Shown here: in pieces, positions 5,978 through 60,993 of the stretch
How the letters are laid out: each line of letters starts with the position of its first letter
Numbering within the stretch: position 1 is the stretch's first letter
Source: a virus
Virus record (IMG/VR): IMGVR_UViG_3300045988_130745
Direction: 5' to 3' (one strand)
DNA length: 64,000 nt
Position numbers and translations under genes: made by a program
Notes under the pieces: model-generated
What the model saw: the letters and a program-made list of their open reading frames with translations, nothing else
The model's database searches: none
Told to the model about the DNA's origin: nothing

Positions 5978-6625
5978 ATGAGTTTAACAAAAGGCAGTAA
6001 AGTTGAAGCTTCAGATTGGAATAATCTCGCTGATGCTTATAATTCTGAAATTGTTGATCGTCGAAAGGTAACTAACGTTAAAATCACTGGCGCGCAGATA
6101 GAATAGCAGATTAATTCTAATTCTACTATTGAGCCTTTAATTGCGGGATTGACTGCAACTACAAATGGCAGAATGGTTAATGAAGATGGTTCTTTAAGTT
6201 CTAACACTTATTCAGTTGCAAAAGGTAGAGGGACTTTGATTTATCCTCTTGAAGATCATCAAAAAGTTCTTTTACAGCTTTCTAAAATTAGTGTTTTTGC
6301 AGAGCCAGGTAAGAGCGGTTGCTACGGTAGCTGTGCTGGGTTATGTGCAAGCGGATGTATGGGCAATTGTAAAAATACTTGTACTGCGGCTTGTAAAAAC
6401 GATTGCGAGGGAACTTGTAAAACAGGTTGTACTTCATGTACCGGCACTTGTTCTGGCGGTTGTTCTAGCTGTTAGGGTGGCTGTGAAGGTTCTTGTTCTG
6501 GCGGTTGTAAAGATAGTTGTGTCCAAGAATGTAAATCAAGTTGTCATGATGCTTGTATGGGTTGCCAAAGTTCTCATGCAAGTTAGGGTTGTTCTTATTG
6601 CGAATGTGGTAATTATCCAGGGTGA
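5978..6625 (+). CDS. Cys-rich CxxxC-repeat protein (candidate maturase substrate)
   Basis: 215 aa. About 100 N-terminal residues lack Cys. Then comes a run of more than 25 Cys, mostly spaced CxxxC (CYGSCAGLCASGCMGNCKNTCTAAC...). Three in-frame TAG. TGA at 6623-6625. Confidence 0.75.
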
Positions 6626-11972: not shown

Positions 11973-12065
11973 ATGAACGATTAAAAGGTGTTCTAAAATT
12001 TTCTTGCTTTGCAAGTTGGGTAAATAAGAAGTTAGGACCAAGTGATGGGAGTTCAAGCCTTTTAA

Positions 12066-26217: not shown

Positions 26218-26232
26218 TAAGGTGGTGAGTTG

Positions 26233-29683: not shown

Positions 29684-29694
29684 GGTGAAAATCA

Positions 29695-30633: not shown

Positions 30634-31202
30634 TTTATGATGAATTAACTGGTGAAGTAATTGAGAATCCAGACCTTACAAAAGGCAAAGTTTATACTGA
30701 AGAAAAAGTTATTGGACGCAAAGAAGCTCAACGGGTTCTTCTTGAAGGTAGTATAACTGACTTTGACCCAGAGGGCTGTTGGATGGAGATACCAGCCGAA
30801 GATATAACTGAGACTGTTGAAAAGTATCACAAATATACCATCGACGAATTGATTGCATAGCAGCAAGCCGCGATTAAGCCAAATGATACTTCAATTTCTC
30901 AAGAAAAAAAACTTGAGCTGTTGCTTAATGCTATACCCACTGCCGCTTATCCAACCGAATCACCTAAGGTAGGCTATAAATGGTCTCCAATGTATAATAA
31001 TGAAGCGGGATTTGGTTGGGAAATGGTAGCTGATCCAGACGCTTTTGGCACTCAAGAAAGACCTTTATATTGGAAAGAAGGTATGGAGGTTAAAGCTGGA
31101 TACTATTATACAGATAAAAGTGAACGGCTGATGCTTGCTGTTGAGAATGGAGTGCCTGATTATTTTGGTTAGTACACTTTTATGGAAGAAATGACTAGTT
31201 AA
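30630..31202 (+). CDS. tail-module protein
   Basis: Track ORFs 30630-30860 and 30921-31172 are in frame and join through TAG. TAA at 31200-31202. Confidence 0.5.
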
Positions 31203-31215
31203 GAGGTATAAGTTT

Positions 31216-31335
31216 ATGGGTACTTTATCTAGGGGGGGGGCTACAATGCCCTTACCTCGTTGTGTACATTTGGAAACGAACGGCTTAATCATTAGTTTGA
31301 CTTTTCTTTCTATTGATGGTATAATAAAATAGTAA
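31216..31335 (+). CDS. short ORF with a G9 tract after a conserved MG-x-L-S-R start
   Basis: MGTLSRGGG... shares its start with the two poly-C genes downstream. May be a remnant or a leader. Confidence 0.3.
31232..31240 (+). repeat. homopolymer G9
   Basis: Read directly from the sequence. Confidence 0.9.
31297..31325 (+). promoter_or_regulatory. family-like promoter
   Basis: TTGACT 31297-31302, 17-nt spacer, TGGTATAAT. Confidence 0.6.
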
Positions 31336-31357
31336 TTAAATATTGAGGGAGATAGTT

Positions 31358-31757
31358 ATGGGTAATATTCCAAGAACTACCCCCCCCCCCCGATACATCA
31401 TTAAGTCTATCGGGAGTGGCGGCAGATTCTAAAATAGTTGGCGATTAGATTTCAAATTTAACATCATCTTTAGATACTAAATTTTTTTCATCTGAAATTC
31501 CTGCTAATTCGACTTTAACCTAGTCGTTTGACAAATTACGTTATGGACATGGGCAATGCGGTTCTGTTTATCTGTCTGCATCAAATGGCGTGCCGGCTTC
31601 ATGGTATTGGTATATTTACATACCTCATCGAGATGGTGGCAATGTTAGTGGCAGCGATAATATGCAATATGGTGTTTTAATCTTAATTGATTTTTGGTCA
31701 AATGCTTTTTATATCGCACGTTATACAAATGGCACAATTAATGTCCGTTCAATTTAA
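31358..31757 (+). CDS. tail-module protein interrupted by a C12 tract (out of frame as sequenced)
   Basis: ATG 31358 gives MGNIPRTT then the poly-C tract. The long downstream frame (DTSLSLSGVAADSKIVGD... to the TAA at 31755-31757) is in another phase. C11 or C14 would fuse the two. Confidence 0.5.
31380..31391 (+). repeat. homopolymer C12
   Basis: Read directly from the sequence. Confidence 0.9.
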
Positions 31758-31776
31758 ATATTAAGGAGAAATTTTT

Positions 31777-32327
31777 ATGGGGAGTATTCCTAGAGCTAAT
31801 ACCCCCCCCCCGTAATAGATAAAACTCTATCGGTGGAGGGTGCAGTAGCAGAAAGTAAAGCGGTTGGTGACAAATTTAATTCAACAATTTTATCTTCGCC
31901 GTTATATAAATCAAAATTTGTTACCGGCTTAGGAATTTACAATTACAATTTTGGCCAACTTGCGACTAATGTAATTACAAAATATCAAGATGGTTCTTTT
32001 CTTGTTGAAATTACATTTGTAGGACATTAGCATAGCATTAGCTCAAATTCAGCTTTTGATTGGCTAAGCGGCAATGGCTTAACAGAAGACGCAAAAAGTC
32101 TAACTGGTAAAAGCAATTATAAACCAACAGCTAATTGTTTCCCCCTATTGGGCAAAGGAGTAATTCCTGCCGAAGAAGGATATAGTCCTTATGTTAGATT
32201 AACTGGAATTAATGGACATCTAAGAGTTGGACGTATTTATGAAGCAACTGCCAATCTAGGTGATTACCAGAACTCTGTATAGCACACTGGTAATTATAGT
32301 TTTAGAATTACTTTAATTCTTTATTAA
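31777..32327 (+). CDS. paralogous tail-module protein interrupted by a C10 tract (out of frame as sequenced)
   Basis: ATG 31777 gives MGSIPRAN then the poly-C tract. The downstream frame (VIDKTLSVEGAVAESKAVGD... to the TAA at 32325-32327) needs C8 or C11 to fuse. Confidence 0.5.
31802..31811 (+). repeat. homopolymer C10
   Basis: Read directly from the sequence. Confidence 0.9.
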
Positions 32328-32348
32328 TTATATAAAATTCTTAATGTT

Positions 32349-32380
32349 AGTGCTCTCCATATTGGAGGGCACTTTTATTT
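32349..32380 (+). terminator. intrinsic terminator
   Basis: Stem agtgctctcc/ggagggcact followed by a T-rich run. Confidence 0.65.
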
Positions 32381-32412
32381 TAGAACAAAATTTTTTATAG
32401 GAGGAAATCGCA

Positions 32413-34770
32413 ATGGATATACTCCTTTTCGGAACTCTCCGAAAATATATCGACGATACTCTTCAAGGCATGGGTGCGCTCAAAGGCGAAAAAGGCGATC
32501 GTGGAGAAAAAGGTGCCCAAGGTCCAAAAGGCGATAAAGGCGACAAGGGAGACAAAGGCGCACAAGGACTTCGCGGTATTCAAGGCTTAACTGGTGCCAC
32601 TGGCGCGAAAGGCGAACGTGGCGCTCAAGGTATCCAAGGTTTAACCGGCCCCCAAGGTATCCCTGGCGTGCAAGGCATCCAAGGTCCAAAAGGCGAGAAA
32701 GGTGACAAAGGTGAAACCGGTCCCGTTGGTAAACGCGGTGTCCCTGGAGTTAATTACAACATTAAATACTTCTTGTCTACTCTTAATGAATTAAATGCCA
32801 TCACTCCTGTTACCGGTTATGACGAAGCTATTTTCGCTTATGTTGCTGAGAATAAATCAATCTATTATTCTTATGAAAGTTCTCCTTGGGCTTTCTTTGC
32901 AGATGCGTCTAATCTTTAGTTTGCGCGCGGAGAGCAAGGTGAGCAAGGTCCTCAAGGTGAGAAAGGTGATAAAGGTGACCAAGGCATTCAAGGCATCCAA
33001 GGACCGCAAGGTATCCAAGGGCCTCAAGGTCTTCAGGGCATCCAAGGAGGTAAAGGAGATAAAGGCGACAAAGGCGACAAAGGCGACCCTCTCACTTGGA
33101 ATGAAGTTCCAGCAGCTGCGCGCAAAGAACTTAAAGGTGAGAAAGGCGACAAAGGCGACACTGGTGATTCTGGTGTTTATTATGGTCCAACTGAGCCAGA
33201 AATTGACCAAGAAAAACTCGTTTGGATTGATTCATCAGTAGAAGAATCGGCTACCACAATTGATATTGCCAACATTCCTGGACTTCAAAAAGAACTTGAT
33301 TCTAAAGTTCAACTCCCAGCCAAAATTGAAAATGATACTCAATTATTTCCCGTTGTAACTTCAAAAGGTACGTCATGGGTCACTCTTGAAGAAACTGTCA
33401 ACGGAATTGTTAGTGAATGTGTAAATATCATCGTGCGTGGCACAGACAATGCGACTCTTAAAGGCACTGAAATTTATCTTCACGATGTAACAACTGACAC
33501 TATATCTACTTTTGAATGGAATGGAACCAGTTTGACTATTTATGTTTTAAATGGACACAAATATTTTATCAGTGGCGCTGAAGTTGAAGGATATGAGCCT
33601 GCCGCGGATAGTTTACAATATATTGCGCGAGCTGCATAGACTCGTACAATCACTTTATCTTATCCGCGCTCAGAAGAAGCAGAATATGGCATCCGATTTT
33701 TAATTGAATCATCAGATCCATCATGTGAGCGTGTAGTAGTCAAAAATAATATTACAACTTATGGCGAAGATACGGGTTTGGTGGCTGCTATTGGTACCAA
33801 ACTCACTATGCCTAAAAACAGTTTTGACGACATCTATCCTTGGTCAGATATTCGCATTGTAACTGATTCTGATAATGCTGCCGAGGCTGCGCAAACGATG
33901 GTTAAAATTCCAAAATATTATGTCAAGGTCACTGTTGATGATACCTATGAAACTTGGATGATTAGTCGTTATAAAAAAGCAGGATACCGTGTCGCAAAAA
34001 TGTTTGCTCGTCCTGATGGAACCGAAGCAGACTATTATGAATATGCCCGTTACGAGACCAGTGACACTAATCGTTCTCAAACTGGCGTCACTCCTCAAAG
34101 TTCAACCACTATTGAAGCATTTAGAACTGCCGCTCTTGGATTAGGTGATAATTGGCATCCAGCTGGACTTGCAGATCGAACTGATGGACTTCAGATGCTA
34201 ATGACTATTGAATTTGCTACTCGCAACATTCAGTCAATAGCAGAAGGTTTGGTTAATTCTAAAACCGTTTCTGATTGCGGTTTGACCGATGGTTTAACTA
34301 TTACCGAAGATTCAAAGGGCATTAAGCCTTATTCTGGTATTGTTAAAAATGCTTTTTCTTATCGTGGAATTGAAAACCCTTACGGTAATTTACTTGAATA
34401 TGCTGATGGTATTATTTTAAACAATTCTCGTGTGTACTATTGCGACGATTGGACTCGTTGGAGTAATTCAATCAATTCAAGTTACGTTCAAGCCGTTGGT
34501 ACTATTCCAACTTTAAGCGGATTTATTACTAAATTGAATTATAATGAAGCTAATCCTTGGATGCGTTTGCCTAGCGAAGTAGTCACTACTGGCGATAGCG
34601 ATAGTAATTATGGCGACTATTATAATGCTCCAACCGCAGATTATACCTTGCCAGTTTATGGCGGTGGTTATTCTACCAATTTGCGTGCGGGCTTATTCCA
34701 CTGGAATTGTACTCGTACTTTTAATGAAACAAATAGAGACATTGGTTCTCGTTTGGCTCGTAGTTTTTAA
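32413..34770 (+). CDS. collagen-like (GXY repeat) tail fibre protein
   Basis: Track ORFs 32413-32919, 33433-33639 and 33778-34770 are in frame (786 codons) and join through TAG. Two GXY blocks ([19 protein letters not shown]...). Confidence 0.75.
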
Positions 34771-34782
34771 GAGGTGATTGAA

Positions 34783-35106
34783 ATGAGAATATCAAAAGCA
34801 ACAAGCGAAATTCGCCCTCAAGATATTATTGAGCAATTATCAGCTAATCGTTTTTCTTGTCGCATTTGCGCGGACATTATTGAAACTGATAATGGTTTTG
34901 ATTTCACTAGCTATCGTGATTCATTTAGCGCATCTTCTTATCCAGAATTACTTGTGAATATTATTCACACTCGTTATACCTATGACGATGAAAACAATTT
35001 TATCAATGATTATATCGCAGAAGGCATGACTAAAAAATATCAAGACTACCGCGATTTTGTTGCTTGGGCTAAATCCCAAGCAAAATCTTATTTTAAGGAG
35101 GACTAA
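34783..35106 (+). CDS. hypothetical protein (possible fibre accessory)
   Basis: ATG at 34783 with an AAGAGG SD. Confidence 0.5.
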   Translation: MRISKATSEIRPQDIIEQLSANRFSCRICADIIETDNGFDFTSYRDSFSASSYPELLVNIIHTRYTYDDENNFINDYIAEGMTKKYQDYRDFVAWAKSQAKSYFKED

Positions 35107-35109
35107 CCT

Positions 35110-35769
35110 ATGCCTATAATGCAGCTATATGATAAAAATACAAGCACTTGGCAAGAAGTTCCTGCCTTAAAAGGTAGTGCCGCGAAAGTAGAAGTTGGCA
35201 CAGTAAAAACAGTGCCAGCCGCGGGACAAGCAAAAGTAACTAATGTTGGTACAAATACTAATGCAATTTTTGATTTTTAGCTTCCTCGTGGTATGGATGG
35301 TATTACTCCTATTCGCGGTACTGATTACTGGACGGCTGCAGACCAATAGCAAATCGTTAAGGATGTTTCTGATAAAATGAATTATCAGTTTACAGATTTA
35401 ATGAATGCTATTCAAAATAAACCAGTCACTTACATTTTTGATGATAAGGCTTCTCTTGATGGCGCGCTCAATCTAACTAATAACACAGTTACCTATAATG
35501 AAAAAGTATGTAAGCTAAATCCTGGTGATGTATTTCTTTTGGTTTCAATTAACGAACCAGATTATTGGTTTGGCGAGGATTCCAATGGTGAGAAACTCCA
35601 TGAACTTGATGCACGAAAAATGGAATTAACTGAATATGTTAAATCAAGTCAATTTCAAGTGATGAATATTGATGCTTATAATGCTATTGCTACAAAAGAT
35701 CCAAATACATTTTATTTCATCATTGAAAAATCAGACCCGACTTCAAGCGATGGGGAGGCAACAATCTAA
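35110..35769 (+). CDS. tail-module protein
   Basis: 220 codons. The N-terminal part, with two TAG codons, is in frame with track ORF 35377-35769. Contains GMDGITPIRGTDYWTAAD. Confidence 0.55.
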
Positions 35770-36602
35770 TGCCTATCTTCATTAATAACAAGCGAGTTTA
35801 GCTCATTTACAAAGGCGAAACTCCTATTGAAGAAATCCACGCTCAAAACGCAACTATTTGGACTCCAAAAGCAGATTTCGCCACGGCTTCATGGGCTGAA
35901 ATTAAAAAGTGGATTGAAAAGGGCACTTGGAAAGAATAGAATTGGAGCGAAGGAGACGCTCATACTATTCATATGAAGGATGGCCATATTCTCACTGCTC
36001 GAATTCTTGCAATATATGATGGCCGTGAGGAAAAAGCAACTTACAAAGGTCAAATTGATAGAGATGAAAATAATGTAAAACCGCACATGGTTCTTGAACT
36101 AACTACTTGTTTACCAGATTTTTATTCTATCAATCTAGAGCCAGAAGTAGAAAATACTCCTCAATCTTGGGGCACTTCAAATCTTTACAAGCTAATGTCT
36201 CCTGGTGGCGAAATATATGACAATCTGCCAAATGAACTTCAATCAATGATTATCCCGGTAATGAAAAAATCTGGTATTAGTGGCAAGGTTCAAAATTCAA
36301 CTCCTGAAACCACTAAGTCCTATCTTTTCCCGCTCTCAATTCGAGAGTATGTCGCAAAAGACAATATTACAAGTGAAATTAATAACAGCGAGGGTTCTCA
36401 ATATCAATATTATATTGATCATCCTGGCTATGTTACTAAAAAAGAATATGCTGGCGATAAAAATATCGTCTATTACACTCGTTCCGCAATGCAAGCTGAA
36501 AATGAACTTTATGAATATTTTTGGGCTATTGGCGGTGCGAATAACTATGCAACTTATCCATCCTATATTAGTTTAGGGACAAGTTTTGCATTTTGTATTT
36601 AA
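35769..36602 (+). CDS. tail-module protein
   Basis: TAATG overlap start. In frame with track ORF 35973-36602 through two TAG codons. Confidence 0.55.
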
Positions 36603-36613
36603 GGAGGTCTATT

Positions 36614-36787
36614 ATGGGTTTTAGCACTTTTAAGCAAGGCGCAGATAGTTATTATGAGTTTGTTTGCGATTCTGTTGATGATATTGCTAGTCTTCCTACT
36701 GATTGCGCACCCGGCTCTGTTGCTTTTGTTATTGAAGGTTCAGTTTGCTATATGCTAAACAATCAAGAGACATGGAAGCCTATTTGA
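36614..36787 (+). CDS. hypothetical small protein
   Basis: AAGGAGG SD at 36601-36607 and ATG at 36614. Confidence 0.5.
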   Translation: MGFSTFKQGADSYYEFVCDSVDDIASLPTDCAPGSVAFVIEGSVCYMLNNQETWKPI

Positions 36788-36791
36788 TTTT

Positions 36792-37139
36792 ATGAAACTT
36801 TACGGAAGTATTGCGAATTATAACTCTATATCTGGCACAATTAATCCAGCGGGTGATATTTCCGGTGCGCTATCTAATCCGCTGGCGCGTGGTGCTTCAG
36901 CCTATGAAATTGCTGTTGCTAATGGCTATGTAGGAACTGAGGAGAAGTGGCTTGAATCACTCTAGGGGCGAACTCCTTAGCGTGGAGTTGATTATTGGAC
37001 GGCCGCAGATATAGAGCAAATGAAACAAGAGTTTAGAGAATAGATGGCTAATGAAATTCAATAGGCAGTCAAAAATTTAAACTTAGATGTTTCTTTTGAT
37101 ATTGAAGATGGACATTTATTTGTGGATATAAAGGGGTGA
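36792..37139 (+). CDS. tail-module protein (paralog of 23783-24370 N-terminus)
   Basis: [42 protein letters not shown]...[10 protein letters not shown]. Several in-frame TAG. TGA at 37137-37139. Confidence 0.5.
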
Positions 37140-37143
37140 GTTA

Positions 37144-37461
37144 ATGGACATAATTACACTTGCGTTGACTCGTAAGGCAGTTAGAGATGCTCACGTTGAC
37201 CATATAGGACCACAAGGACCGGTTGGACCGAAAGGTGAGAAAGGCGATAAAGGTGACCCATTTACTTGGAACGATCTCACTGCGGAGCAAAAGAAAGAAT
37301 TAACTGGTCCAAAAGGTGATAAAGGCGATACAGGTGGAGTTGGCTATGTCTCTTTTGAGAGTGGCAACGATGGACACTTGTACGCCGTTATTGCCGAAGG
37401 GACTGATGAAATCAGTTTCAGAATTTCCGATGATGGTAAGCTGGAGGTAATCTACGCATGA
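37144..37461 (+). CDS. small collagen-like protein
   Basis: 105 aa with [17 protein letters not shown] and [10 protein letters not shown] blocks. Confidence 0.6.
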
Positions 37462-39881
37462 GTAAAAGAATAGATTTAGGCGCAGTAACCGCTTACGCCA
37501 TTGCAGTTAAAAATGGATTTGAAGGCACAGAAGTAGCCTGGCTTGCAAGTCTTAAAGGTGCAAAGGGCGACAGGGGTGAAAAAGGCGAGCAAGGCGCGCC
37601 AGGTATTTAGGGAGAAAGAGGAGCAACTGGTGAAACTGGCCCTATTGGCCCTCAAGGTATCCAAGGACCAAGAGGTGCTCAAGGTGAGAAAGGAGATACT
37701 GGCAATGTCGGCCCAGCTGGTCCTCAAGGACTAAAAGGCGAAACTGGTGCAGTTGGACCAGCTGGGCCGCAAGGTAAGCAAGGCATCCAAGGTGAAAAAG
37801 GTGAAACTGGTGCTGCAGGCGCCCGAGGTGAACAAGGTCCGCAAGGTATTCAAGGCATTCAAGGTCCAAAAGGCGAGAAAGGCGATCCTTTCAGTATAAA
37901 GAAAATTTATGTTTCTGTTGCTGCAATGAATGCTGATTTTGACGGTACTGATACTTCTACTGGTGATTTTGTTCTTATTAACACTGGCAATGTTGCAGAT
38001 GAAGATAATGCAAAGCTCTATGTAAAAGGCGAGAGTGCTTTTACTTTTGTCACTGATTTGTCCGGCGCGGCTGGTATACAAGGTCCGCAAGGTCCTCAAG
38101 GAGTGCAGGGTGTTCAAGGAGAACAAGGTATTCCGGGTGTAAAGGGTGACAAAGGTGATCCAGGCTCTGATGCAACTGTCACTACTGATAATATCACCTC
38201 TGCTCTTGGCTATACTCCCGCAGATTCAACCAAAGTTTACACTAAAACTGAAGTTGACGGAATGATTGATGGTGTTTATGCTCAAGCCGTTCGCAATGCG
38301 ACTTCTGTTGCTCAAGTCAACGGCTTGTTCCAAGAGTGGTGGAAGAAAAATTGGGTTGAAGATACCTCCACCCACACTCAAATGCTTGAGCGTTGGTTTG
38401 GAAATGTTCTTACCAGTAGCAAGGTTTATGGTACCAAGCTACCTTTGTTTGCTACTTCAAATAGTGCAAATGGCGAGTATATTGACGATTCTGTTGGCAT
38501 GACTTGCACTCCTTCAACTAACGCAGTTCTTGGTCAAGATGACTTCGCATTCAAGCCAGAGTTCTGGTGCATCGAAGCATCTGGTGAGCATAATTCTGAC
38601 GGTTCAATTACTATCTATGCTGTTGAATTAATTGATGACATTGCTACCGTTCGTTCTGGCGAGCATTTGACTTGGGTTCTTCAAAAGAATACTTATTGGC
38701 ATGAATATACCAGTGAAGGTTATCATTTCGTCGAACTCAAATCAACTCCTGATGAAACTTGGCATCGTTGGCCGCAAGGTACATCAAAAGATGGTACAGT
38801 TCATGAGTTTATTGCTAACCCGAAGTATTATGCCGGAATGAAAGATGGAACTATTACTGTTGGCACTAATCTTCCTGCAATTAATTTTACTTCTCATCAA
38901 TCTGGCGTTGCTCTATGGCGCAAGCGTGGCAGTCAATACTCTGGCGCGAGTGGCAACCTTATCAAGTTCCTTGATATTATGATGAAGTTAAAGTATGCTA
39001 AGAAAGGTAACTCTGGGACTATTGAAGGTTGTTCAAACTATAACTGGCAATATACTACTCCTGTTGGCGAGACAGGCGTAGAACGTATTATTGTTACTAC
39101 CGCGCAGGGTGCAAATATTAAAGTTGGCTCAACTGTTATTATTGGTAAGAAAGGCGGCTCTACCGATCGTGGCGATAGTGCTATGAGAAGCCTTGTTTCA
39201 ATGAAGAAAGTCAAAAGTTTGGAGCCAGTCACTATTGATGATACTTCTTATACAGCCGTTAATATTGATAATGGCGGAACAACTTTTGATACAGTTGCGA
39301 GTGAGACAATGATTTCTTCTATGCCTTATCACTCTGGATACAATGACAACGTATTAGGTTATGATGGCAGTGCAACTAATTACACCAATGGTTCTGAACC
39401 TGGTTTGCTCCAGAAGATTGAGTTCCAGAATGGTGCTTATCTGATTATTTCAGATGAATTGTGGCAATGGAGCAAAGATGATACAAACTATATGTTTGAT
39501 TGCTATACTTGCCATGATTAGTCAAAAGTTACTACTAATGGAACAATTTCTTCTGACTATACAAAGCAAGCTGATTTGACTTTGAAGTGGGCAGTTGAGG
39601 GTGCTAATACAAGTTGGCACTGGGAATATATTGAAGATACTGCAATCGCTAATGATCCAGCAGTTTGCTGGCCAGCTAAAGTATCCACGACAGCTGGTAG
39701 CGGAACTGGTTGTAAAGCTGGCTTCGGCGTCGCTTTGGCGTCGTCTGGTGTGCGTGCTGGTTGGTGTTTCTGCGGTTTGTGGGGTGGCGGTCTTTGTGGT
39801 GTTTCAGCTCGTAACTCGGACGTTTCTCCTTCGTATTCTGGCTGGTACGGGGCGCTCGGCGGTCCAGGTCTTGCGGGGTGA
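37458..39881 (+). CDS. collagen-like tail fibre protein carrying the DGR variable region at its C-terminus
   Basis: ATGA overlap start. 807 codons in one frame, joining track ORFs 37926-39521 and 39576-39881 through TAG. GXY blocks are present. The last roughly 55 codons are the VR. Confidence 0.8.
39719..39865 (+). repeat. DGR variable repeat (VR)
   Basis: 147 nt align without gaps to 40222-40368. All 19 mismatches I counted sit at adenines of the other copy. Confidence 0.85.
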
Positions 39882-45104: not shown

Positions 45105-45881
45105 ATGAAAGATGTAATAGGAATTTATAAAATCACAAATTAGATTTCTGGGAAAGTCTATATCGGGTAGTCTAGGCATATCCATAAAAGATGGCAGGAA
45201 CATTGTTAGCCTTCTTCAGATTCAGTTATTTCAAGAGCTATTAAAAAGTACGGTCAAGAAAATTTTACTTTCGAAATAATTGAAGAATGCCCGTTAGAAT
45301 CGTTAAATGAGAGAGAAGAATTTTATATTAAAAAATATAATTCTTGTGTACCTAATGGCTATAATGTTATGTCTTCTTCAAATGGAATCTAGTCTAAATT
45401 CTTTCTTTTAGAAGAAAAGCAACTAGATAAAGTAATTTAGTTTTTACAAGCTGATGATAAAACCTATTCTCAGATTGCTGATTTAACTGGTTTAGATATT
45501 TCTACTATTTCAAGAATTAATAATGGCGAAATTCATTATAATGAGAATCTTTCTTATCCTATTTCAAAGAGAGATGCTGGTAAATGGTTAAAAGTAAATC
45601 ATTATTGCATTGATTGCGGTACACCCATTTGTCGATAGGCGATCCGTTGTAAAAAATGTAATGTTATATTTTTAACTAAAAATAAAATTTCTAGTCCAAG
45701 ACTTGAATGTCCAGCAAGAGAAATTTTAAAACAGGAAGTATTTTCTTTACCTTTAGAAGCGGTTGGAAGAAAATATGGAGTAACTGGTAGTGCAGTTAAA
45801 AAATGGTTGGGAAAATATAATTTGCCAACTCGGAAAAGTGATATTTCATCTTATTCAAAAGAAGAATGGGATAAATTATAA
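45105..45881 (+). CDS. GIY-YIG homing-endonuclease-like protein (copy c)
   Basis: MKDVIGIYKITN[TAG]ISGKVYIG[TAG]SRHIHKRWQEH. 259 codons with several TAG. Starts 13 nt after tRNA-Cys. Confidence 0.8.
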
Positions 45882-48026: not shown

Positions 48027-48773
48027 ATGCATAATCCTATTTGTGGTATTTATAAAATTACTAATTTGATTAATGGAAAATGTTACATCGGTTAGAGTGT
48101 GAATATCAAACAAAGATGGAGAGATCATCGTTCAAGGGCCATATCCAAAGGTTCAGAAGGGTTTGAGAGTTATTTTTATCGTTCTATTAGAAAATATGGA
48201 CTAGAGAATTTTTCTTTTGAAATCTTGGAAGAATGTCCTAAAGAATAGTTAAATGAAAAAGAGCAATTTTATATTGCAAAGTATCATTCAAATCAAGAAA
48301 GTTTTGGTTACAATTTAACTGAAGGCGGCGATTCTGTAGGAGGAAAAGCAAAGAAACTTTCTGATAAAGAGTTGCAAAGCATAATTTATGATTTGAAGAA
48401 TACGTTGTTATCATAGGCTGAAATTGGGTAGAAATACCATATTGCTTAGACTACAGTTAGTGGTATTAATCGAGGAGAATTTCGTTATTAGGACAATGAA
48501 ATTTATCCATTAAGGACAAGAAATGTTTTAAAAGAACGTGGTTTTGTTGATGGCTATAAGACTTGCCCAATTTGCGGAAAGAAATTTCAAGGCAAAGCTA
48601 AAACTTGTTCGATTGAATGTGGTAAAATTCGTGTAAGAAAAATAAAAGTAATTCCTAAACGAAGTGCTTTAAAATATCTAATTCGTAATTATTCATTTGA
48701 ATGGATTGGTCATCAATTCGGAGTAAGTAGTAACACAATAAAGAAATATTGTGATAAAGCTAATTTACCTTGA
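48027..48773 (+). CDS. GIY-YIG homing-endonuclease-like protein (copy d), ending at a premature-looking TGA
   Basis: MHNPICGIYKITNLINGKCYIG[TAG]SVNIKQRW. The conserved C-terminal tail (SYSDGEWEKV) continues in frame after the TGA at 48771-48773 up to the TAA at 48822-48824. Confidence 0.75.
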
Positions 48774-48989: not shown

Positions 48990-49073
48990 CCCTCATTAGA
49001 CCATAAGGATTGGGGTGGGTCTGTAAAACCCATGCGTTTCGCCGGGATGGTTCGATACCATCATGAGGGACCA
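48990..49073 (+). tRNA. tRNA-Tyr (GUA), type II
   Basis: Acceptor ccctcat/atgaggg, anticodon stem tgggt/accca with loop CTGTAAA, long variable arm, T arm gatgg-TTCGATA-ccatc, CCA encoded. Confidence 0.8.
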
Positions 49074-54999: not shown

Positions 55000-55245
55000 A
55001 TGGAAAAAGATTATTTTAAAATATCTCGTAATGAATTAAGGCGACTTCTTATCTTAGAAATGTATTTTGATGCAATTATAAAATTATCTCCTGTTGGAGA
55101 TTTTTATGGAGAATTGTATAAAAATACAACTGGAGAAGAATTAGAAGAAGAGCTTTCTCAAGATGAATGTCGAGAAAAAGCAAATATGGCGGTTGAAGAG
55201 AAATCTTCAGAAATTATAAGAACTAAATTTGAGAGCTTAGAGTAA
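55000..55245 (+). CDS. hypothetical protein (paralog of 60694-60993)
   Basis: DFYGELYKNTTGEELEEE parallels DFYGEIYRGLTGEELTIP in the other copy. Confidence 0.55.
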   Translation: MEKDYFKISRNELRRLLILEMYFDAIIKLSPVGDFYGELYKNTTGEELEEELSQDECREKANMAVEEKSSEIIRTKFESLE

Positions 55246-55311: not shown

Positions 55312-55848
55312 ATGGCTTGGACTTAGGGTGGGGCAATAGGAGCTTCTGAAGTTAATAATTGGTATACTAGTCTTAATAAAACTATTGGAAGTTATGGCGG
55401 TGGAATTGCATAGCTATCTAATCCTATAAGAGCGGGAAGAGACGTATATGCTTCTGATTTAAATAATTTAATAACTAAATTAAACGAATTAAAAAGAGAC
55501 GAATATTTAAGCTAGGCAAGTTATGGTAGTTATAGCTCAGTTTCTGTTGGATAGATTATTCGCGCATCAGATTGGACTGGAATAAATTCAAGTATTTCTA
55601 GTTTGACTGGTGTAAAATGTCGGAATAGAGCTACTTATACAAATGGCGCATCTACAACTACTAATGGTAATGGAGTATGTCGGCAAGGCTATGATAGTAA
55701 TGGAACAGATTAGAATGGCGGAATGTGGGCGAATACTTGCACGAACGGTTGGTATGATAATTCTTCAAATTCTCATGGCACAAATAGCGCTAGTCCAAAT
55801 CGTAATGGCAGTAGGGTAGATATATGGTGTCAAAATAGCACGGGGTAA
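55312..55848 (+). CDS. Gly/Ser/Asn-rich protein with C-terminal Cys residues (candidate substrate of cluster B)
   Basis: 178 aa, with six in-frame TAG, so invisible in the ORF track. GASEVNNWYTSL and IRASDWTGINSSI echo EASDWNNLADAY of the protein at 5978-6625. C-terminal region has 5 Cys among N/G/S/T. Confidence 0.6.
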
Positions 55849-55850
55849 AA

Positions 55851-57197
55851 ATGAATAAAAAAGATACTGCAATTTTTTATAGCTGCGGAATTTGTAATTT
55901 AAATTGCAATTATTGCTGTATAGATAAAAATCCAATTTTGAAAGAGATAGATAAAGAATTAGGAGAAAGTTTTTAGGGAGACTATTATTTTAATCAAGTA
56001 AAAAAATATTTCCCATTACCAGGTTCTCTTCGCCAAATTGAAACTTGGGGAGGCGAACCATTTTTAAAAATGGAACGAATGCATAATTTAATTCGTCAAT
56101 TATGCGATTATTATTTTTATTTTAATAGTTTTTATAGTTCTACAAATTTCTCATTTCCTCAATGGGCAGATAAAGTTTTAGATCTATTGAAGGTTTTTGG
56201 GGAATTTTCTCCGCGTCGCTTTACGATACATTTACAGCTTTCTATTGACGGACCAGAATATATTAATGACAGAAATAGAGGCATTGGGACTACTCAAAAA
56301 TGTTTAAATAATTTTAATATTTTGATTTCTCGTTTGCCAAATGAGTTGCCTAAAAATATAAATTTGATAATTACAACTAAAGAAACTTTAGATAATTCTT
56401 CTATTATGGCTTTAGATTCTAAAAATAAAGTCATAGAATATTATCAATTTATTGAAAATAATTTTATTAGAAAAATAGATTTACTTAATTTGGACAATGT
56501 TAAAATAGAATTTTGTATTCCTAATACAGCAGATCCTTCTCCAGTTACAAAAGAAATAGGAAAGCATTTTGCAAATATCTGTAAATGGTGCAGAGAAATA
56601 GAACAAGAAAATGAAAAATATGGCTATTTTAGATATTATAAATCAATTACTCCTTTTTCTTAGAATGTTGACAATTTAAAATTGTCTTATAATTATCCAA
56701 ATTACACTTGCGGGACTGGTTATAATATGATTGGATTTTTACCGAATAATATGATTGCTAGTTGTCATGAAAGTTTTGTTTACTTAATTGAAAAATATAA
56801 AGATTTTGCAAAAGAATAGATGTCAACTGAAGTAGATAAAACCATTAATTTTAATAATTTTATTTCTAATTGTAATGCTTGTAAAATGTGTATGTCCGAG
56901 AAAAATTTCCCTGAGCATGAAAGATGTATGTCGTATTATAATCAATCTAATACGATGTTTAGATTAGCAAATATTACAAATGAAATTATGTGTTTAGCAT
57001 TGGCAAAACAAATAGATCCTAAATATGCTGAAGAAGAAAAAGCTCTTTCTGCGGCGATTTATCTTCAATCCGCTACCGCTTACTGTATAAAAAATAATTA
57101 TGAAATGACAGGAAGCTATAGTTTAGTTTCAGATGGGATATTAAAATTATTATTTAACGGAGCAGCAGATATTATTGAGGGAATAAATGATGTATAA
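55851..57197 (+). CDS. radical SAM enzyme B1
   Basis: YSCGICNLNCNYCC gives the CxxxCxxC motif and WGGEPFL is present. Track ORFs 56070-56663 and 56820-57197 are in frame (449 codons) and join through TAG. Confidence 0.75.
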
Positions 57198-58606
57198 CGC
57201 AATAACAAACAAAAGAATATATCAAGAAGAGCAAAATGAATTATTATATAATCTTTTGTAGAAAAGATTTTTTCAATTCTGGGAAAAACCTGAACTTTTC
57301 CAAGATAATACTTCTTTGAGTAATAATTCTAATATAGAACTATTTATTACTCCATATTGTAACCAATCTTGTTCTTATTGTTATTTAGTTAAATATCCAG
57401 AATTATATCCTAAAGGAATTTCGAATGATAAAATTTTAGAAAATTTAAAAATTTTTTTAAATTGGATTAACGAAAAAAATTTTTATCTTCCCGATATTGA
57501 TTTATTTTCTGGAGAAATTTGGCATACAAAATTAGGTTTTGATATTTTAGATATAATTTTAGATTATTGTAAAAATAATAAATTAAAAATTAAGCAATTA
57601 ATGATTCCAACAAATGGAACGTTTTTAAAATCAGATGAAACTTTTTATAAAATGCAAAATTTTATAGATGATTTTAAAGAAATAGGCGTTCGGCTTTGTA
57701 TTTCTTTATCAATTGATGGAGCAATTATAGAAAATAAAACACGTCCTTTGAATAATAAAGAATTAAAAACAGATTCTTTTTATGAGAGAGCTTTTGCATT
57801 TGCTAAATATAATAATTTTGCCTTTCATCCAATGATAAGTGCGGTTTCTGTAAAAGACTGGGTGGAAAATTATAAATGGTGGAAATCAGAATGTAAAAAA
57901 TATGATTTGAATATTTATGATTTAATGATGCTAGAAGTGAGAAATAGTGATTGGACAGAAGAATCAATTCAAGATTATAATCATTTTTTAAATTTTTTAT
58001 TACAAGATTTTTTATCTGATTGTAAATCTGTTGATGAAGCAGTTCAATGTCTATTCAATTTAAGTCCTTCTATAAAAAAATCAATAAATTTAAACAATAA
58101 TAATTATTTACCCTATGCTATTACTAAAAGTAATACATATCCTGCTTGTACTATTGCCACACACCTCTGTGTAAGGTTAGGAGATTTAGCTATTTCTCCA
58201 TGCCATAGAGCTGGATATGAAAAAAAATATTTATGGATATTTTCAAATTGAAAACAATAGAATTGTTGGTATAAAAGCGAATAACCCTTATATGGCAATG
58301 AGAATTTTATTTGGTAATAATACTATTTGTTCTCCAAAATGTGACACTTGCGATTTTAATAAAGTTTGTTTACAAGGCTGTTTTGGCGCGCAAATGGAAT
58401 ATAATCAAGATCCTTTTATGCCAATCCCCGAAGTATGCACTTTCTTTAAAAGTAAATATATTAATCTTGTAAGACAATATAAAAAATTAGGGATTTTAAA
58501 TGCTTTAGAAAAATATCATTCTTTAGAATGCATCCAATATCCTATGGCACATTTTGTTTTAAATTTTTGCAATGGAGTGCTAGATAAATATGGCATGGAA
58601 TCTTGA
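57187..58606 (+). CDS. radical SAM / SPASM enzyme B2, split by a frameshift in an A8 run
   Basis: ELFITPYCNQSCSYCY gives the CxxxCxxC motif. The C-terminal CDTCDFNKVCLQGC (SPASM-like) lies in track ORF 58217-58606, in the next frame. Removing one A at 58220-58227 fuses ...SPCHRAGYEK to NIYGYFQIENN... Confidence 0.65.
58220..58227 (+). repeat. homopolymer A8 at the B2 frameshift site
   Basis: Read directly from the sequence. Confidence 0.9.
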
Positions 58607-58886
58607 CACTATTTTTAATTTAGGTCCTATATTTTCTTTAGAATATGGCAATATTACTAAAGAAGATTTTGTAAATTAGGATATTAAAAGTATGTCTTTT
58701 GATTGTTGTACTCTTGAAAGACAAATGCTAGGAAGTATCGAACGGACTTTTATAAAAGAGGATGGCACAGTTAAAAGGGAAAAGGTTTATAATCTCTATC
58801 CAGAAGGAGCATTAAAGCAATCTTCAAGGTGCCTGAACGCATTTGGGGAAACCGTTTTTAATTGGGAGAATAAAAATGAATTTTAA
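58590..58886 (+). CDS. hypothetical small protein of cluster B
   Basis: ATG at 58590. One TAG joins it to track ORF 58692-58886. 98 aa. Confidence 0.4.
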
Positions 58887-60636
58887 TTTTAATACGAAAT
58901 ATAAAGCAAGAACTCCAGAAGATACAATTTCTATAGTAAAACATTTTTTCGAGGGAAGAGGTTATACCCTTACAGAAGTTACTTTTTAGACTGAGGCTGG
59001 CACATGGACGGTTCATATTGAACTTTTTGATAAAGGATTTTATATTCTTCAATCTAATGGAAAGGGCATGACTAAATTATTTAGTTTGGCTAGTGGATAT
59101 GCTGAACTATATGAACGTTATTGCAATATGCATCCTATTCTTTCCAATAGAATTTTCCAGAAAAGATTTTTCAATAGTAATTTTGAGAAAAACGGTTTTT
59201 ATTTTTAGAAAGGAGAAAAAGAAATTTCTTATACAGAAATGTTCCAGTCGAACCCAGAAATTAAAGACTTTTTTTATAAAATTTTAAAAACCCCTCAAAA
59301 TGTTCAAAGATTTTTTAAAGAAAGTTTTAATAATAAATTCATTGGAGTTCCTTTTGTTTCGACTAAAAATGATTCAGATATTATTTATATAGACCCAAGA
59401 ATTTCCGCTTTAATTTGGACTTCAATTGGATTAGCTGCAGGAAATAGTATTGAAGAAGCATTAACTCAAGGCCTTTCTGAAATTTGTGAAAGAATTGGTT
59501 TGGTAAATTTTTATTTTAAACCTCAAGAACGATTTTATGCTATAGATTTAACTAAAATTAAAAATAAAGATTTAAAAGATAAAATAGATAAAATTAATAA
59601 AGCTGGATATTTATTTTATGTTATTGATTTATCCTATAATTTTAATGTCCCTACTTTAATGTCTATTTTGATTGATCCAATAAGTTTACTTACATCAGTT
59701 GATTTTGGTTCTTATCCAGTCTTTAATATTGCTTTTGAAAGAGTAATTACAGAAATTTATCAAGGTGTTGCGACTTTTAAAAATAAAGAAATTAATATCC
59801 AAACACCTTATTCTCCTAATGGAGCAATTGGATTTTTAAATAGTGCATTAAATAATATTTCAGAAGCTAATAGTATTGATGAAAATTTCTTTTCTAAAGT
59901 TACTTTTGTAGAATCTTGCAATAAAAAAATTTTTTTAGAAGAAGCTATAGATTTTTCGTCATTGATAAAATATTTAAATAATATTTTCGATAATCTTGGA
60001 TATAAATGTTATTATGCAAATATGAGCTTATCAAAAGATATTGCTGCTATTCGTATTAATGTTCCTGGATTATATTTAATGAATGAAAAAATTGAACTTT
60101 TAAGTAAAGCTAGTTCTTTGATTGTAGAAGATTGTTTGGATATAATTAAAAATATTAACAATAACATGGATAAATTGCTTTCTTTGAACGAAAATGTTAC
60201 TTCGGACGAATTAAAAGAAATTTATCAATGTTTTTATAAAATATCTGATAAACAAGAATCTATGCCACCTATTACAGGAGCAATTATTGGGACTTTACTT
60301 TTTTCTAATCCTTATATGGTTTTTGGACAAAGTAATAGTAATATAATTCATTCTTTAAAAAATTGGCCGGATATTTTTCTTTTTGAATATAAACATTCGT
60401 ATTGGATGCCTGATTTAAAGAAATATTTAACTTTAGTAAGATATAAACAAAATAAATGCTATTCTAAAGAATAGACAATTAACTTTTTTGCTGCTCTAGG
60501 AAGTTATATTTCAGAAGAAGATTATGATAATGCTTTAAATTCAGATTATATTTTTTCTCAAATCTTTATTAACGGGACTTTAAAATTATATTACAGTTCT
60601 TTTTATGACGAACTTATTTAGAAGTTTCTTTATTGA
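58876..60636 (+). CDS. YcaO-domain protein
   Basis: NGKGMTKLFSLASGYAELYERY and SIGLAAGNSIEEALTQGLSEICERIG match the two YcaO ATP-binding signature regions. In frame with track ORF 59239-60474. Extends through TAG codons at both ends to the TGA at 60634-60636. Confidence 0.75.
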
Positions 60637-60661: not shown

Positions 60662-60693
60662 TATTATAGAAAATGAGGAAAGGAAATGAGATT

Positions 60694-60993
60694 ATGAGCG
60701 AAAAGAATTATGAGACTAAATGGCATACTGTTCGTGAATCTTATCTTCGAATGCTTATTGGTAAAGCCATGAAATATGACATTCTTATGGATGATTTTTC
60801 TAAAATCGAAATCAATAGTGAAGATTTTTATGGTGAAATTTATCGAGGTTTAACTGGTGAGGAACTCACTATTCCCAATGATCAAGCTCACTTTATCAAG
60901 CGCGTAAATTTCGTCAATGGCGAAATCATCAAGCAGACCGATGAGACTCTTGAAAAACTTGATCTTGCCGCTAAGAAACACGGATTTGAATAA
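60694..60993 (+). CDS. hypothetical protein (paralog of 55000-55245)
   Basis: An internal ATG aligns with the paralog N-terminus. Confidence 0.55.
   Translation: MSEKNYETKWHTVRESYLRMLIGKAMKYDILMDDFSKIEINSEDFYGEIYRGLTGEELTIPNDQAHFIKRVNFVNGEIIKQTDETLEKLDLAAKKHGFE

Follow-up and report, generated by a model that had tools for sequence, protein, structure and literature searches.

The candidate substrates encoded at two radical SAM clusters of a phage, here called proteins A and B, are supported as remote homologues that share an N-terminal domain (N-domain) some 100 residues long, as judged from the comparison of their sequence profiles. This N-domain, common to both proteins, is ancient. Given that the domain is shared and the enzymes at the two loci are unlike, the clusters point to one substrate superfamily served by two enzyme sets and not to a duplicated system. 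The superfamily reading is in itself supported; joined to the proposal that the mature protein keeps the N-domain as a handle instead of losing it as a cleaved leader, it has in our view an even chance of being correct. The DNA analysed, referred to as the window, is the whole stretch of 64,000 nucleotides of IMG/VR record IMGVR_UViG_3300045988_130745, and the positions of its relevant features are provided in Table 1.

Reading frames, motif copies and cysteines

TAG is a sense codon in the cluster genes of this phage, since a tRNA with a CTA anticodon was detected, readthrough of TAG yields full-length enzyme ORFs that match the Pfam and NCBIfam models from end to end, and public gene calls agree (P0011 with 100% identity to protein A, P0001 with 97% identity to protein B). 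The tRNA scored below the Rfam tRNA gathering score and is a candidate that would permit TAG as sense in both clusters. There were three in-frame TAG codons in the gene of protein A and five in that of protein B. The motif strings quoted in the preliminary description were all recovered, although only with in-frame TAG as sense: KVEASDWNNLADAYNSEI corresponds to residues 8-25 of protein A, and IGASEVNNWYTSLNKTI and IRASDWTGINSSISSL to residues 9-25 and 83-98 of protein B. With TAG read as glutamine, the observation of a shared motif stands. A third copy in protein B, absent from that description, was found at residues 45-60 (VYASDLNNLITKLNEL). The location of all cysteines in the C-terminal regions was likewise as described, the 25 of protein A being at residue positions of at least 115, with 17 of their 24 spacings exactly 4, and the four of protein B at residues 103, 123, 143, and 173.

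Table 1. Features of clusters A and B in the window
Feature	Position	Strand	Remarks
Candidate suppressor tRNA, CTA anticodon	3558..3633	+	ARAGORN
Small ORF, 111 aa	4288..4623	+	ORF call; precedes and overlaps A maturase 1
Cluster A radical SAM/SPASM maturase 1, 455 aa	4607..5974	+	3 in-frame TAG
Protein A, 215 aa	5978..6625	+	N-domain residues 1-114 (5978-6319)
Protein A motif ASDWNNL, residues 11-17	6008..6028	+	aligned by hhalign to helix 1 start of B-family domain
Protein A CXXX-repeat region, residues 115-215	6320-6622	+	
ORF inside cluster A, 196 aa	6631..7221	+	no family found
ORF directly upstream of A maturase 2, 117 aa	7187..7540	+	no family found
Cluster A radical SAM/SPASM maturase 2, 426 aa	7530..8810	+	8 TAG; paralogue of maturase 1
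Protein B, 178 aa	55312..55848	+	5 TAG; predicted three-helix N-domain residues 1-105 (55312-55626)
Protein B motif copy 1 ASEVNNW, residues 11-17	55342..55362	+	predicted helix 1 start
Protein B motif copy 2 ASDLNNL, residues 47-53	55450..55470	+	predicted helix 2 start
Protein B motif copy 3 ASDWTGI, residues 85-91	55564..55584	+	predicted helix 3 start
Protein B variable N/G/S/T-rich loop	after N-domain	+	
Protein B conserved C-terminal strand, residues 163-170	55798-55821	+	
Cluster B radical SAM enzyme 1, 448 aa	55851..57197	+	4 TAG; highly divergent
Cluster B radical SAM/SPASM enzyme 2	57187..58606	+	two frames in window
Small protein, 104 aa	58572..58886	+	conserved position in B-type cassettes
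YcaO-domain protein, 586 aa	58876..60636	+	4 TAG

Homology and predicted fold of the N-domain

The N-terminal similarity between proteins A and B proved real and extends collinearly over a domain some 100 residues in length. The homology is a matter of profile-profile statistics at about 15-20% identity: pairwise BLASTP was not significant (E 0.5), and Smith-Waterman comparison against shuffles gave p values of 0.04-0.006, which were not counted as significant pairwise. The HMM of one family recognized the sequences of the other with p from about 0.004 to <0.0003 (3000 shuffles), and hhalign of 105 B-family against 14 CXXX-family N-domains gave a probability of 90% and an E-value of 1.7e-6 (79% and 1.5e-5 without the window's own A rows). 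Therefore, the expectation that alignment would exceed shuffled controls was borne out by the profiles, with real scores of 38.0 and 33.5 against 17.2 for the best of 300 column shuffles and about 12 for reversed profiles, but not by pairwise BLASTP. The profile alignment runs collinearly over about 90 columns from Met1, beyond the motif alone, and both families begin identically, as MA-x-[ST]-x-G-x-x-I-x-[AS]-S-D.

It must be considered whether this likeness arose by convergence or chance, Ala-Ser-Asp followed by an amphipathic helix being a common helix start, in which case the two proteins would be unrelated. The lack of pairwise significance agrees with it, and the motif occurs three times in protein B and, in weak form, at the C-terminal tails of the A maturases of the window, which indicates that helices readily give rise to such strings. 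Nevertheless, we regard this explanation as very unlikely in view of the collinearity of the profiles, the shared start at Met1, the linkage of both families to radical SAM genes, and the score of only 12, against 38, for reversed profiles, in which helical periodicity is kept.

When AlphaFold2 was run on 97 B-family sequences, residues 10-110 were modelled with a pLDDT of about 90, and the mean pLDDT was 44 with only 8 close sequences. The model contains helices at residues 11-28, 47-62, and 85-99, followed by a strand at 105-111 that pairs with the conserved C-terminal strand, residues 163-170, while the loop at 117-154 is disordered. In this model the domain consists of three helices, each beginning with a motif copy; the motif is not the short leader-like recognition segment that had been proposed. 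Because the strand that ends the N-domain is predicted to pair with the conserved C-terminal one, the core of protein B would be an internal loop and not a free C-terminal peptide. A Foldseek search with the B model gave no PDB or BFVD match at E ≤0.001, and the weak BFVD matches were to uncharacterised proteins.

The large family founded on protein B, as yet unnamed, comprises 153 clusters at 50% identity. Both this family and the CXXX family combine a constant N-part with a hypervariable C-part; among close B-family homologues, the N-domain had a mean column identity of 86% and the C-terminal region was far more variable.

Enzyme sets of the two clusters and their known relatives

Protein A belongs to the known radical SAM target system with CXXX repeats, as a divergent phage member. 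To our knowledge, this system has long been predicted and never characterised; Haft and Basu reportedly described it in silico in 2011. The Pfam model PF27846 (tSAM_targ_Cxxx_rpt) was precomputed on P0011, which is identical to protein A, and there were weak matches to TIGR04114 (16.7 bits, cutoff 20) and TIGR04117. The gene of protein A sits between those of two maturases that are 36% identical (E 1e-92), carry the radical SAM cluster motif CX3CX2C (CNLRCDYC and CNLNCSYC) and have Cys-rich C-terminal parts of SPASM type, as read from their sequences. Maturase 1 matched Pfam Radical_SAM above cutoff (1.9e-11), and TIGR04115 (rSAM_Cxxx_rpt), the best-scoring model for both A maturases, was covered in full length (profile positions 2-359). 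Cluster A is thus alike to the CXXX-repeat system in its cysteine every fourth residue and its flanking TIGR04115-type maturases. It differs in that these score below the curated cutoff of 350 bits (2.4e-80 and 270.7 bits for maturase 1; 4.7e-59 and 200.7 bits for maturase 2), in having two maturase paralogues around one target in a TAG-recoded phage, and in the 114-residue N-domain of protein A, which lies outside every model.

The second-best model for both maturases was that of the PapB/freyrasin family (NF047865; 1.4e-44 and 3.1e-41), again below cutoff (152.7 and 141.7 vs. 340 bits). PapB cross-links its substrates through Cys thioethers within repeats of the motif CX3D/E (PMC12373016); the repeats of protein A differ, being CXXXC with few Asp/Glu acceptors. 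The approximately 25 cysteines in CXXX register would be worked on by the two PapB-related, CXXX-type maturases, probably through thioether (ranthipeptide-like) cross-linking. The small ORF overlapping maturase 1 had no Pfam or PHROG family and was unlike the proteins of about 95 aa that precede A-type maturases at other loci, which in one of them (L037) are fused to the maturase. A mimicry of substrate helix 1 by the C-terminal tails of the A maturases was also considered and was discarded as a general feature, as it was weak in the two of the window (p 0.0015 and 0.006) and absent in three other phages.

The enzymes of cluster B are of a different kind. Enzyme 1 matched Pfam Radical_SAM under cutoff (1.3e-4), with 4.5e-6 for its best NCBIfam match, and orthologues 46-61% identical to it were found downstream of every B-family gene examined. 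Enzyme 2 is split into two frames in the window by an additional A within a run of eight (A8, 58220-58227), and the protein is unbroken in a related locus, L001, as 475 aa; it has, by sequence, a CX2CX5CX3C SPASM motif and gave weak ryptide/PapB matches. The YcaO-domain protein exceeded the cutoffs of both PF02624 (3e-33; 116 bits vs. 25.7) and the YcaO kinase domain TIGR00702 (2.8e-23; 82.6 bits vs. 75.65). The small protein is only 23% identical to its counterpart in L001.

In joining a short-period repeat protein to two different radical SAM enzymes, cluster B resembles the His-Xaa-Ser system (HxsA with HxsB/HxsC), and one of the 97 B-family members matched HxsA4 (2.5e-5). The match of enzyme 2 to HxsB was nevertheless weak (E 0.001; 17.9 bits vs. 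370), as was that to HxsC (E 0.052), and we know of no YcaO in the Hxs system. In E. coli, YcaO assists the radical SAM enzyme RimO, and cluster B is alike in placing a YcaO beside radical SAM enzymes. The best named model for its YcaO was the stand-alone one (NF040716), at 7e-26 and 90.8 bits against a cutoff of 700; however, its radical SAM enzymes had no RimO/methylthiotransferase match among the NCBIfam matches listed, and no TfuA or E1-like partner was seen in the cluster. We propose that the N/G/S/T/H/C-rich loop of protein B, clamped in the model between two conserved strands, would be worked on by the two unrelated, divergent radical SAM enzymes and the YcaO protein, possibly by side-chain cross-links together with YcaO-type backbone activation.

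It had been suggested that the phage carries two diversified copies of one modification system 50 kb apart. The different enzyme sets argue against copies of one system: cluster A has two TIGR04115-like paralogues, whereas cluster B has enzymes unrelated to them plus YcaO. The B radical SAM enzymes align with the A maturases at E 1e-5 to 0.02, over the generic radical SAM core only, and are not related to each other beyond that core; the YcaO and small protein of cluster B are both absent from cluster A. Comparison of the A-type partners of about 95 aa with the window's small ORFs and the B-type small protein revealed no accessory protein common to both clusters. Each of the two N-domain subfamilies is paired with its own family of enzymes, so the reader surface would have had to evolve independently if docking were a function common to both.

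Gene linkage, cassette exchange and role of the N-domain

The motif domain had been expected beside SPASM genes, and this linkage held beyond the window. A TIGR04115-like maturase was present within about 3 kb in 59 of 60 IMG/VR and 9 of 9 GTDB loci with an A-type N-domain (68/69), and both B-type radical SAM genes were directly downstream in all six other B-type loci, four of which also had the YcaO gene. An A-type cassette also occurs in Vallitalea maricola AN17-2 (L095). Cassette B is dispensable: in a close relative (the type of IMGVR_UViG_3300045988_129985) it has been cleanly deleted. A comparison of the window with L001 gave 88-91% nucleotide identity for the N-domain, similar to that of the flanks, and 37-42% for the core; the core and downstream enzymes were swapped as a unit, and the N-domain was conserved like the backbone. 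At protein level, the identity of the N-domain was 88% vs. 46-61% for the enzymes, and with the N-domain so much better kept, a constraint other than enzyme docking fits at least as well. The deletion variant and the swapped cassette, both in near-identical backbones, offer natural comparisons for function.

A classical RiPP pathway, in which the N-part would be a maturase-bound leader that is cleaved to free small modified peptides (toxin, signal or anti-defence) at lysis, agrees with the conserved N-part and hypervariable core, with the RiPP-type radical SAM/SPASM and YcaO enzymes, and with the accessory-like behaviour of cassette B, which is dispensable and swaps as a unit. Long folded leaders exist in the NHLP/proteusin and Nif11 families, which are alike in their long conserved N-region and hypervariable C-terminal cores. 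One RiPP leader family can serve different enzyme classes (PMC10858898). However, no relation in sequence or fold between those families and proteins A and B was found, and no leader peptidase, protease, cleavage motif, double-glycine-type site or exporter was detected among the genes at 4288-8810 or 55312-60636. Neither did any cluster protein match a PqqD/RRE Pfam model at E up to 0.1-1, although divergent RREs can escape sequence methods. Moreover, in the model of the B family a conserved strand at the C-terminus closes off the core as an internal loop of a folded protein, the products would measure 75-220 residues, and in some relatives (P0024, P0032, and L007_237) the domain stands C-terminal of the repeats, where no classical leader cleaved from the N-terminus could lie. 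We consider this pathway very unlikely.

In the preferred reading, that of one superfamily with a retained handle, the phage and prophage proteins of this superfamily would have the N-domain as their constant part, and their variable C-terminal repeats would be the target of the neighbouring radical SAM enzymes. The domain would present the repeat region to the enzymes, which may dock on it, and would stay on the mature protein; the absence of a peptidase or exporter gene in either cluster and the C-terminal position of the domain in those relatives argue against a cleaved leader. If so, a domain of about 100 residues that has no name as yet would be a marker of proteins modified by radical SAM enzymes in the phages and prophages of gut Clostridia-type hosts. 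It would tie the targets with CXXX repeats to another unnamed family that is larger (the 153 clusters above, with two divergent radical SAM enzymes each and usually a YcaO) and provide a search handle for phage peptide- and protein-tailoring systems that standard annotation overlooks, here partly because of TAG recoding.

Alternatively, the N-domain could be a virion or tail-fibre attachment module of structural fibre or adhesin proteins, with repeats hardened by cross-links and recognised directly by the enzymes, an explanation that we deem possible if rather unlikely. A-type cassettes stand beside tail genes in several relatives: in 57-kb myophage-like contigs (L047) they immediately follow the genes for the baseplate wedge and tail fibres, and elsewhere they are found near collagen-like fibres (L014), Mtd_N proteins and a tape measure (L003), or Phage_Wedge1/Phage_tail_fib genes (L007). 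Two fusions (P0026 and P0034) have N-termini judged by eye to be tail-fibre-like together with CXXX repeats, and the TAG-bearing genes of the window include tail fibres and both clusters. Phage tail fibres combine a conserved N-part with an exchangeable C-part and chaperone cassette, and the breakpoint of cassette B between the conserved N-part and the swapped core and processing genes mimics this mosaic; there is, however, no homology, and the downstream genes are radical SAM/YcaO enzymes and not chaperones. On the other hand, the window's own tail-fibre genes lie at 24-40 kb and neither cluster adjoins them, the neighbours in L006 include SSB and peptide deformylase genes (with a by-eye tail-fibre-like protein two genes upstream), no structural match to a virion protein was found, and the deletion of cassette B in a close relative makes B at most an accessory decoration. 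Searches of proteins A and B against PHROG, Pfam, and NCBIfam gave no tail-fibre family match, the sole PHROG exception being phrog_6085, of unknown function (E 6e-4), on the Cys repeats. With regard to the earlier concern that the motif might be a common tail-fibre one unrelated to the maturases, A-type relatives do occur in tail-fibre modules but are not unrelated to maturases.

A variant of this alternative, which we advance tentatively and think unlikely, is that the three-helix domain marks phage particle proteins, such as adhesins or decorations associated with tail fibres, in which radical SAM and YcaO enzymes cross-link the hypervariable repeat loops. RiPP chemistry would then build and diversify host-contact modules of phages, with the N-domain as virion anchor and the core and tailoring enzymes exchanged like a receptor-binding tip and its chaperone. 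This raises the question of whether phages apply RiPP-type cross-linking to structural or host-contact proteins of their own and not to secreted peptides.

Our literature search retrieved no work on CXXX-repeat, radical SAM or YcaO systems of phages. In IMG/VR, neither an exact 24-mer of the B gene nor a scan with close B-family patterns gave any locus, and a B subfamily alignment revealed three. Among GenBank phages there was no match to B or, by megablast, to the window's 50-64 kb, and one unannotated record matched the A-type N-domain.

Coding capacity of the two clusters

The window is phage-like, with 36% G+C, nearly all of its genes on the + strand and 28 tRNA genes. Read with the standard code, clusters A and B break up into fragments at TAG; with TAG as a sense codon, both clusters gave full-length proteins that matched family models end to end. 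Public gene calls place glutamine at the TAG sites, as in P0011 and P0001, which are 100% identical to protein A and 97% identical to protein B, respectively. Reassignment of TAG to glutamine has been described in gut phages (PMC10879173). ARAGORN predicted a tRNA with a CTA anticodon; both this tRNA and the Tyr tRNA score below the Rfam tRNA gathering threshold. Across positions 1-64000, sense TAG codons were confined to part of the gene set, being concentrated in clusters A and B, the tail-fibre genes and endonuclease-like genes; runs of small genes, such as that at 51-55 kb, were TAG-free. Four TAG-rich genes lie amid the tRNA arrays; one has a GIY-YIG-like start by eye, and the syntenic genes of the related phage L001 matched Pfam GIY-YIG. 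They are probably homing endonucleases interspersed with tRNA genes.

Coordinates of the features in the window and in related contigs (protein identities to the L001 cassette are given for cluster B)
Feature	Coordinates	Locus	Remark
Small ORF	4288-4623	Cluster A
Radical SAM/SPASM maturase	4607-5974	Cluster A
Protein A	5978-6625 (+)	Cluster A
Unknown ORF	6631-7221	Cluster A
Unknown ORF	7187-7540	Cluster A
Second maturase	7530-8810	Cluster A	36% identical to first maturase
Protein B	55312-55848 (+)	Cluster B	L001 69%
Radical SAM enzyme, very divergent	55851-57197	Cluster B	L001 61% (enzyme 1)
Radical SAM/SPASM enzyme, split frame	57187-58606	Cluster B	L001 57% (enzyme 2)
104-aa protein	58572-58886	Cluster B	L001 23%
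YcaO	58876-60636	Cluster B	L001 46%
Small genes bracketing cassette B	55000-55245, 60673-60993	Window
CTA-anticodon tRNA	3558-3633	Window
Tyr tRNA	48990-49073	Window
TAG-rich genes	1958-2629, 12794-13588, 45105-45881, 48027-48773	Window	13, 11, 6 and 6 in-frame TAG; GIY-YIG-like start in the first
496-aa protein	10482-11972	Window	Between tRNA genes; PHROG 850, annotated RNA-binding protein (3e-131)
Tail-fibre block	24376-39881	Window	No PHROG match for three large proteins (starts 24376, 26634, 29695)
Two ~800-aa proteins	32344-34770, 37458-39881	Window	Long collagen-like Gly-X-Y repeats; PHROG tail-fibre families
Paralogous CXXX-repeat targets	8001-8612, 11387-12037	L003	Single maturase
Paralogous CXXX-repeat targets	2830-3543, 8001-8594	L007	Single maturase
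~95-aa protein fused to maturase N-terminus	6383-8017	L037

The best model for both cluster A maturases was TIGR04115 (2.4e-80 and 4.7e-59), under its curated cutoff, followed by the PapB family. TIGR04115 describes the maturase that goes with CXXX-repeat targets. Protein A has a cysteine-free N-terminal part of 114 residues and then 25 cysteines; of the 24 intervals between them, 17 measure exactly four residues. Cluster A shows the defining repeat, adjacency and cluster motifs of the CXXX-repeat/TIGR04115 system but misses its curated score cutoffs; it is best classed as a divergent branch of that system in phages.

The two radical SAM enzymes of cluster B were unlike each other in pairwise comparison, and their likeness to the cluster A enzymes (E 1e-5 to 0.02) was confined to the core common to radical SAM enzymes. 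These are different enzyme sets, and the earlier suggestion that one modification system is present in two diversified copies is not upheld. The radical SAM/SPASM gene is split in the window into two overlapping frames by an extra A in an A8 run (58220-58227), and L001 has an intact 475-aa protein spanning this point; possible explanations of the split are slippage, a misassembly or a pseudogene. The HxsB/HxsC, PapB, ryptide and YhhB models gave weak matches only, and the YcaO, though its domain is genuine, fell far under the cutoff of the S12-accessory YcaO model. Cluster B does not correspond to any named system. Literature searches found no RiPP class in which a repeat-loop protein and a small protein occur together with a YcaO and two radical SAM enzymes unrelated to each other, and we know of none.

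Probable homology of the N-terminal domains

Protein A carries ASDWNNL at residues 11-17, and protein B three copies of the motif: ASEVNNW (11-17), ASDLNNL (47-53) and ASDWTGI (85-91). The preliminary description had placed its motif strings correctly, missing the copy at 47-53, and was also right that all cysteines of both proteins are C-terminal. Pairwise, BLASTP gave E 0.5 over a 6-residue match and Smith-Waterman p 0.04-0.006 against shuffles. Since this comparison was not significant, the families of both proteins were gathered. The A-family N-domain has the consensus I-x-A-S-D-F-x-x-L-K-A-R-V-K-A-E-x-x-R-R ... Y-D-Y ... E-H-x-x-K-I, with CXXX repeats next (alignment A2). For B, a word-indexed search gave 10 close clusters and an exhaustive profile search (E up to 0.001) gave 153 clusters at 50% identity, all with one three-part plan: a conserved N-domain of ~105 residues with v-K-C-R-N at its end, a variable part of roughly 60-220 residues with short N/G/S/T/H/C-rich repeats, and a C-terminal stretch conserved as T-(I/V)-I-D-I-x-(N/C)-(A/S)-x-T-K-S-N. 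The cysteines of protein B are at residues 103, 123, 143 and 173 (spacings 20, 20 and 30); Cys103 is the nearly invariant one of the K-C-R-N strand and Cys173 lies in the conserved C-terminal strand.

Alignment of 105 B N-domains with the A family by hhalign gave a probability of 90% and E 1.7e-6 (79% and 1.5e-5 without the window's own A rows), collinear from Met1 over ~90 columns; an earlier, shallow profile-profile comparison had given 55% and 1.2e-4. The real profile-profile scores were 38.0 and 33.5 versus 11.8 and 12.0 for reversed profiles, and none of 300 column shuffles reached the real score (mean 9.4, s.d. 1.9, maximum 17.2). Cross-family HMM searches likewise exceeded 3000 composition-preserving shuffles (p about 0.004 to below 0.0003). 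At the family level, the statistics are therefore well above shuffles and reversals, and judged from these profiles the two N-domains are quite probably remote homologues; the collinear alignment and its controls make pure chance or convergence an improbable source of the likeness. When the whole database was searched, the B profile retrieved no CXXX proteins; the relation thus shows up only when profiles are compared with profiles. Because the proteins share a motif pairwise and a whole domain in the profiles, the original observation is confirmed in a stronger form than first stated, and its interpretation was right in part.

AlphaFold2, supplied with 97 diverse B-family members, modelled residues 10-110 at a pLDDT of about 90. 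The modelled helices (11-28, 47-62 and 85-99) each begin exactly at one ASD/ASE motif, so the motif marks the start of each helix of the predicted three-helix domain. Residues 105-111 form a modelled strand that is paired with the conserved strand near the C-terminus (163-170), and region 117-154 was unmodelled; the variable repeats are thus predicted to loop out between two conserved strands that clamp them. In the hhalign alignment, helices 1 and 3 of the B family fall on helices 1 and 3 of the A family, and helix 2 falls on the A-family helix with E-H-x-x-K-I. The first motif match between A and B proposed earlier is therefore correct, and the second one, at IRASDWTG, resembles an internal-repeat echo. 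No fold match at E 0.001 or better was found in PDB or BFVD, and Pfam, NCBIfam and PHROG have no model for the N-domain. Within their C-terminal 40 residues, the two cluster A maturases bear tails, ALQIISQSEWDGLKALV and ALKIISQEEYDTLKEQY, like the helix-1 motif of the substrate (helix-1 HMM, p 0.0015 and 0.006 versus shuffles); the maturases of three other phages did not score.

Linkage to enzymes and genomic context

A TIGR04115-like maturase was present within about 3 kb of the A-type N-domain at 59 of 60 IMG/VR loci, the sole exception being a sequence that ends 174 bases past the match, and at 9/9 loci in GTDB genomes (Clostridia-type MAGs and Vallitalea). At all six B-type loci with enough flank (L001, L011, L012, L074-L076), the genes immediately downstream encode orthologues of the two B radical SAM enzymes, at 40-61% identity, and four of the loci have a YcaO. 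With radical SAM linkage at 68 of 69 A-type loci and at all six of these B-type loci, the N-domain is no tail-fibre motif that occurs by itself without connection to the maturases, the alternative that the preliminary description had raised. Its proposal of one family of substrates tied to radical SAM enzymes agrees with the shared N-domain and with the linkage in both families. The enzyme families beside the two subfamilies differ, and no accessory protein common to both clusters was found.

In the best-supported reading, A and B would belong together in a superfamily of phage proteins targeted by radical SAM enzymes. Its hallmarks would be a three-helix N-domain that stays constant and a repeat region that varies and is the modification target, on which two different enzyme sets would act, one per locus. 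We favour the N-domain as a retained handle that would hold the repeats out to the enzymes, a function to which we give even chances. The leader-like recognition put forward in the preliminary description may apply, but a structural anchor is a serious competitor to it. A classical RiPP with a cleaved leader would fit the enzyme types; it is unlikely, as no RRE/PqqD domain (Pfam) and no peptidase or exporter were found in either cluster, the model shows the B core as an internal loop and the domain is at times C-terminal of the repeats.

In other phages, A-type cassettes recur inside tail modules. L047, standing for a group of about 57-kb contigs, has in order a tail protein, a baseplate wedge subunit, a tail protein, a tail-fibre/virion structural protein, a small protein, the maturase and the CXXX protein, and L014 a virion structural protein, an 843-aa collagen-like fibre, the CXXX protein, two small proteins and the maturase. 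The L003 cassette, with two CXXX paralogues, lies between Mtd_N proteins and the tape measure. In L007, Phage_Wedge1 and Phage_tail_fib are followed by the maturase and a CXXX protein with a C-terminal domain and, further on, by a second paralogue and lysins; the helical domain is there C-terminal, not N-terminal, of the repeats. L006 (150 kb) has SSB and peptide deformylase genes among the neighbours and, two genes upstream, a protein that is tail-fibre-like by eye. The same applies to the N-termini fused to CXXX repeats in the public proteins P0026 and P0034; in P0182 the B-type domain comes after an unrelated 185-residue domain. In the window, neither cluster is next to fibre genes, the collagen-like ones being at 32-40 kb. 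Most A-type cassettes of other phages (L003, L006, L014, L040 and L047 among them) have a conserved helical ~95-aa protein (Y-V-E-R-L-x-Y-E-x-N) directly before the maturase, with no family assignment and no detectable counterpart in the window.

Variation of cassette B among related phages

Nine close relatives in IMG/VR have an intact cluster A (96-99% protein and 93-96% nucleotide identity over the cluster). One of them, the 179-kb L086 (IMGVR_UViG_3300045988_129985), has a clean 4.48-kb deletion, equivalent to 55342-59819 of the window, between flanks of 92-95% nucleotide identity. It spans B codon 10 to YcaO codon 315 and joins the first nine B codons to YcaO codon 316 at a GCAAT microhomology. 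Cassette B is therefore dispensable.

The proteins flanking the cassette in L001 (183 kb) are 84-99% identical to those of the window, with one small gene at 73%. The nucleotide profile places the left breakpoint within gene B, at the border of N-domain and core: identity is 88-91% in the N-domain, as in the flanks, 37-42% in the core and about 55-75% in the enzymes, returning to 80-94% past position 60615. Core and enzymes thus change together, and the N-domain stays with the backbone. This mosaic pattern and the tail-module contexts would both suit the main rival explanation, an N-domain that anchors the protein to the virion or fibre with the repeats read directly by the enzymes; an essential structural role is opposed by the dispensability of B and by the lack of any structural match, and we consider such an anchor possible, if somewhat doubtful.

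The small genes that bracket cassette B are mutual paralogues (about 34-35% identity via their L001 counterparts), and related phages differ far more in the intervening cassette than in its flanks; the bracketing genes might serve as recombination arms.
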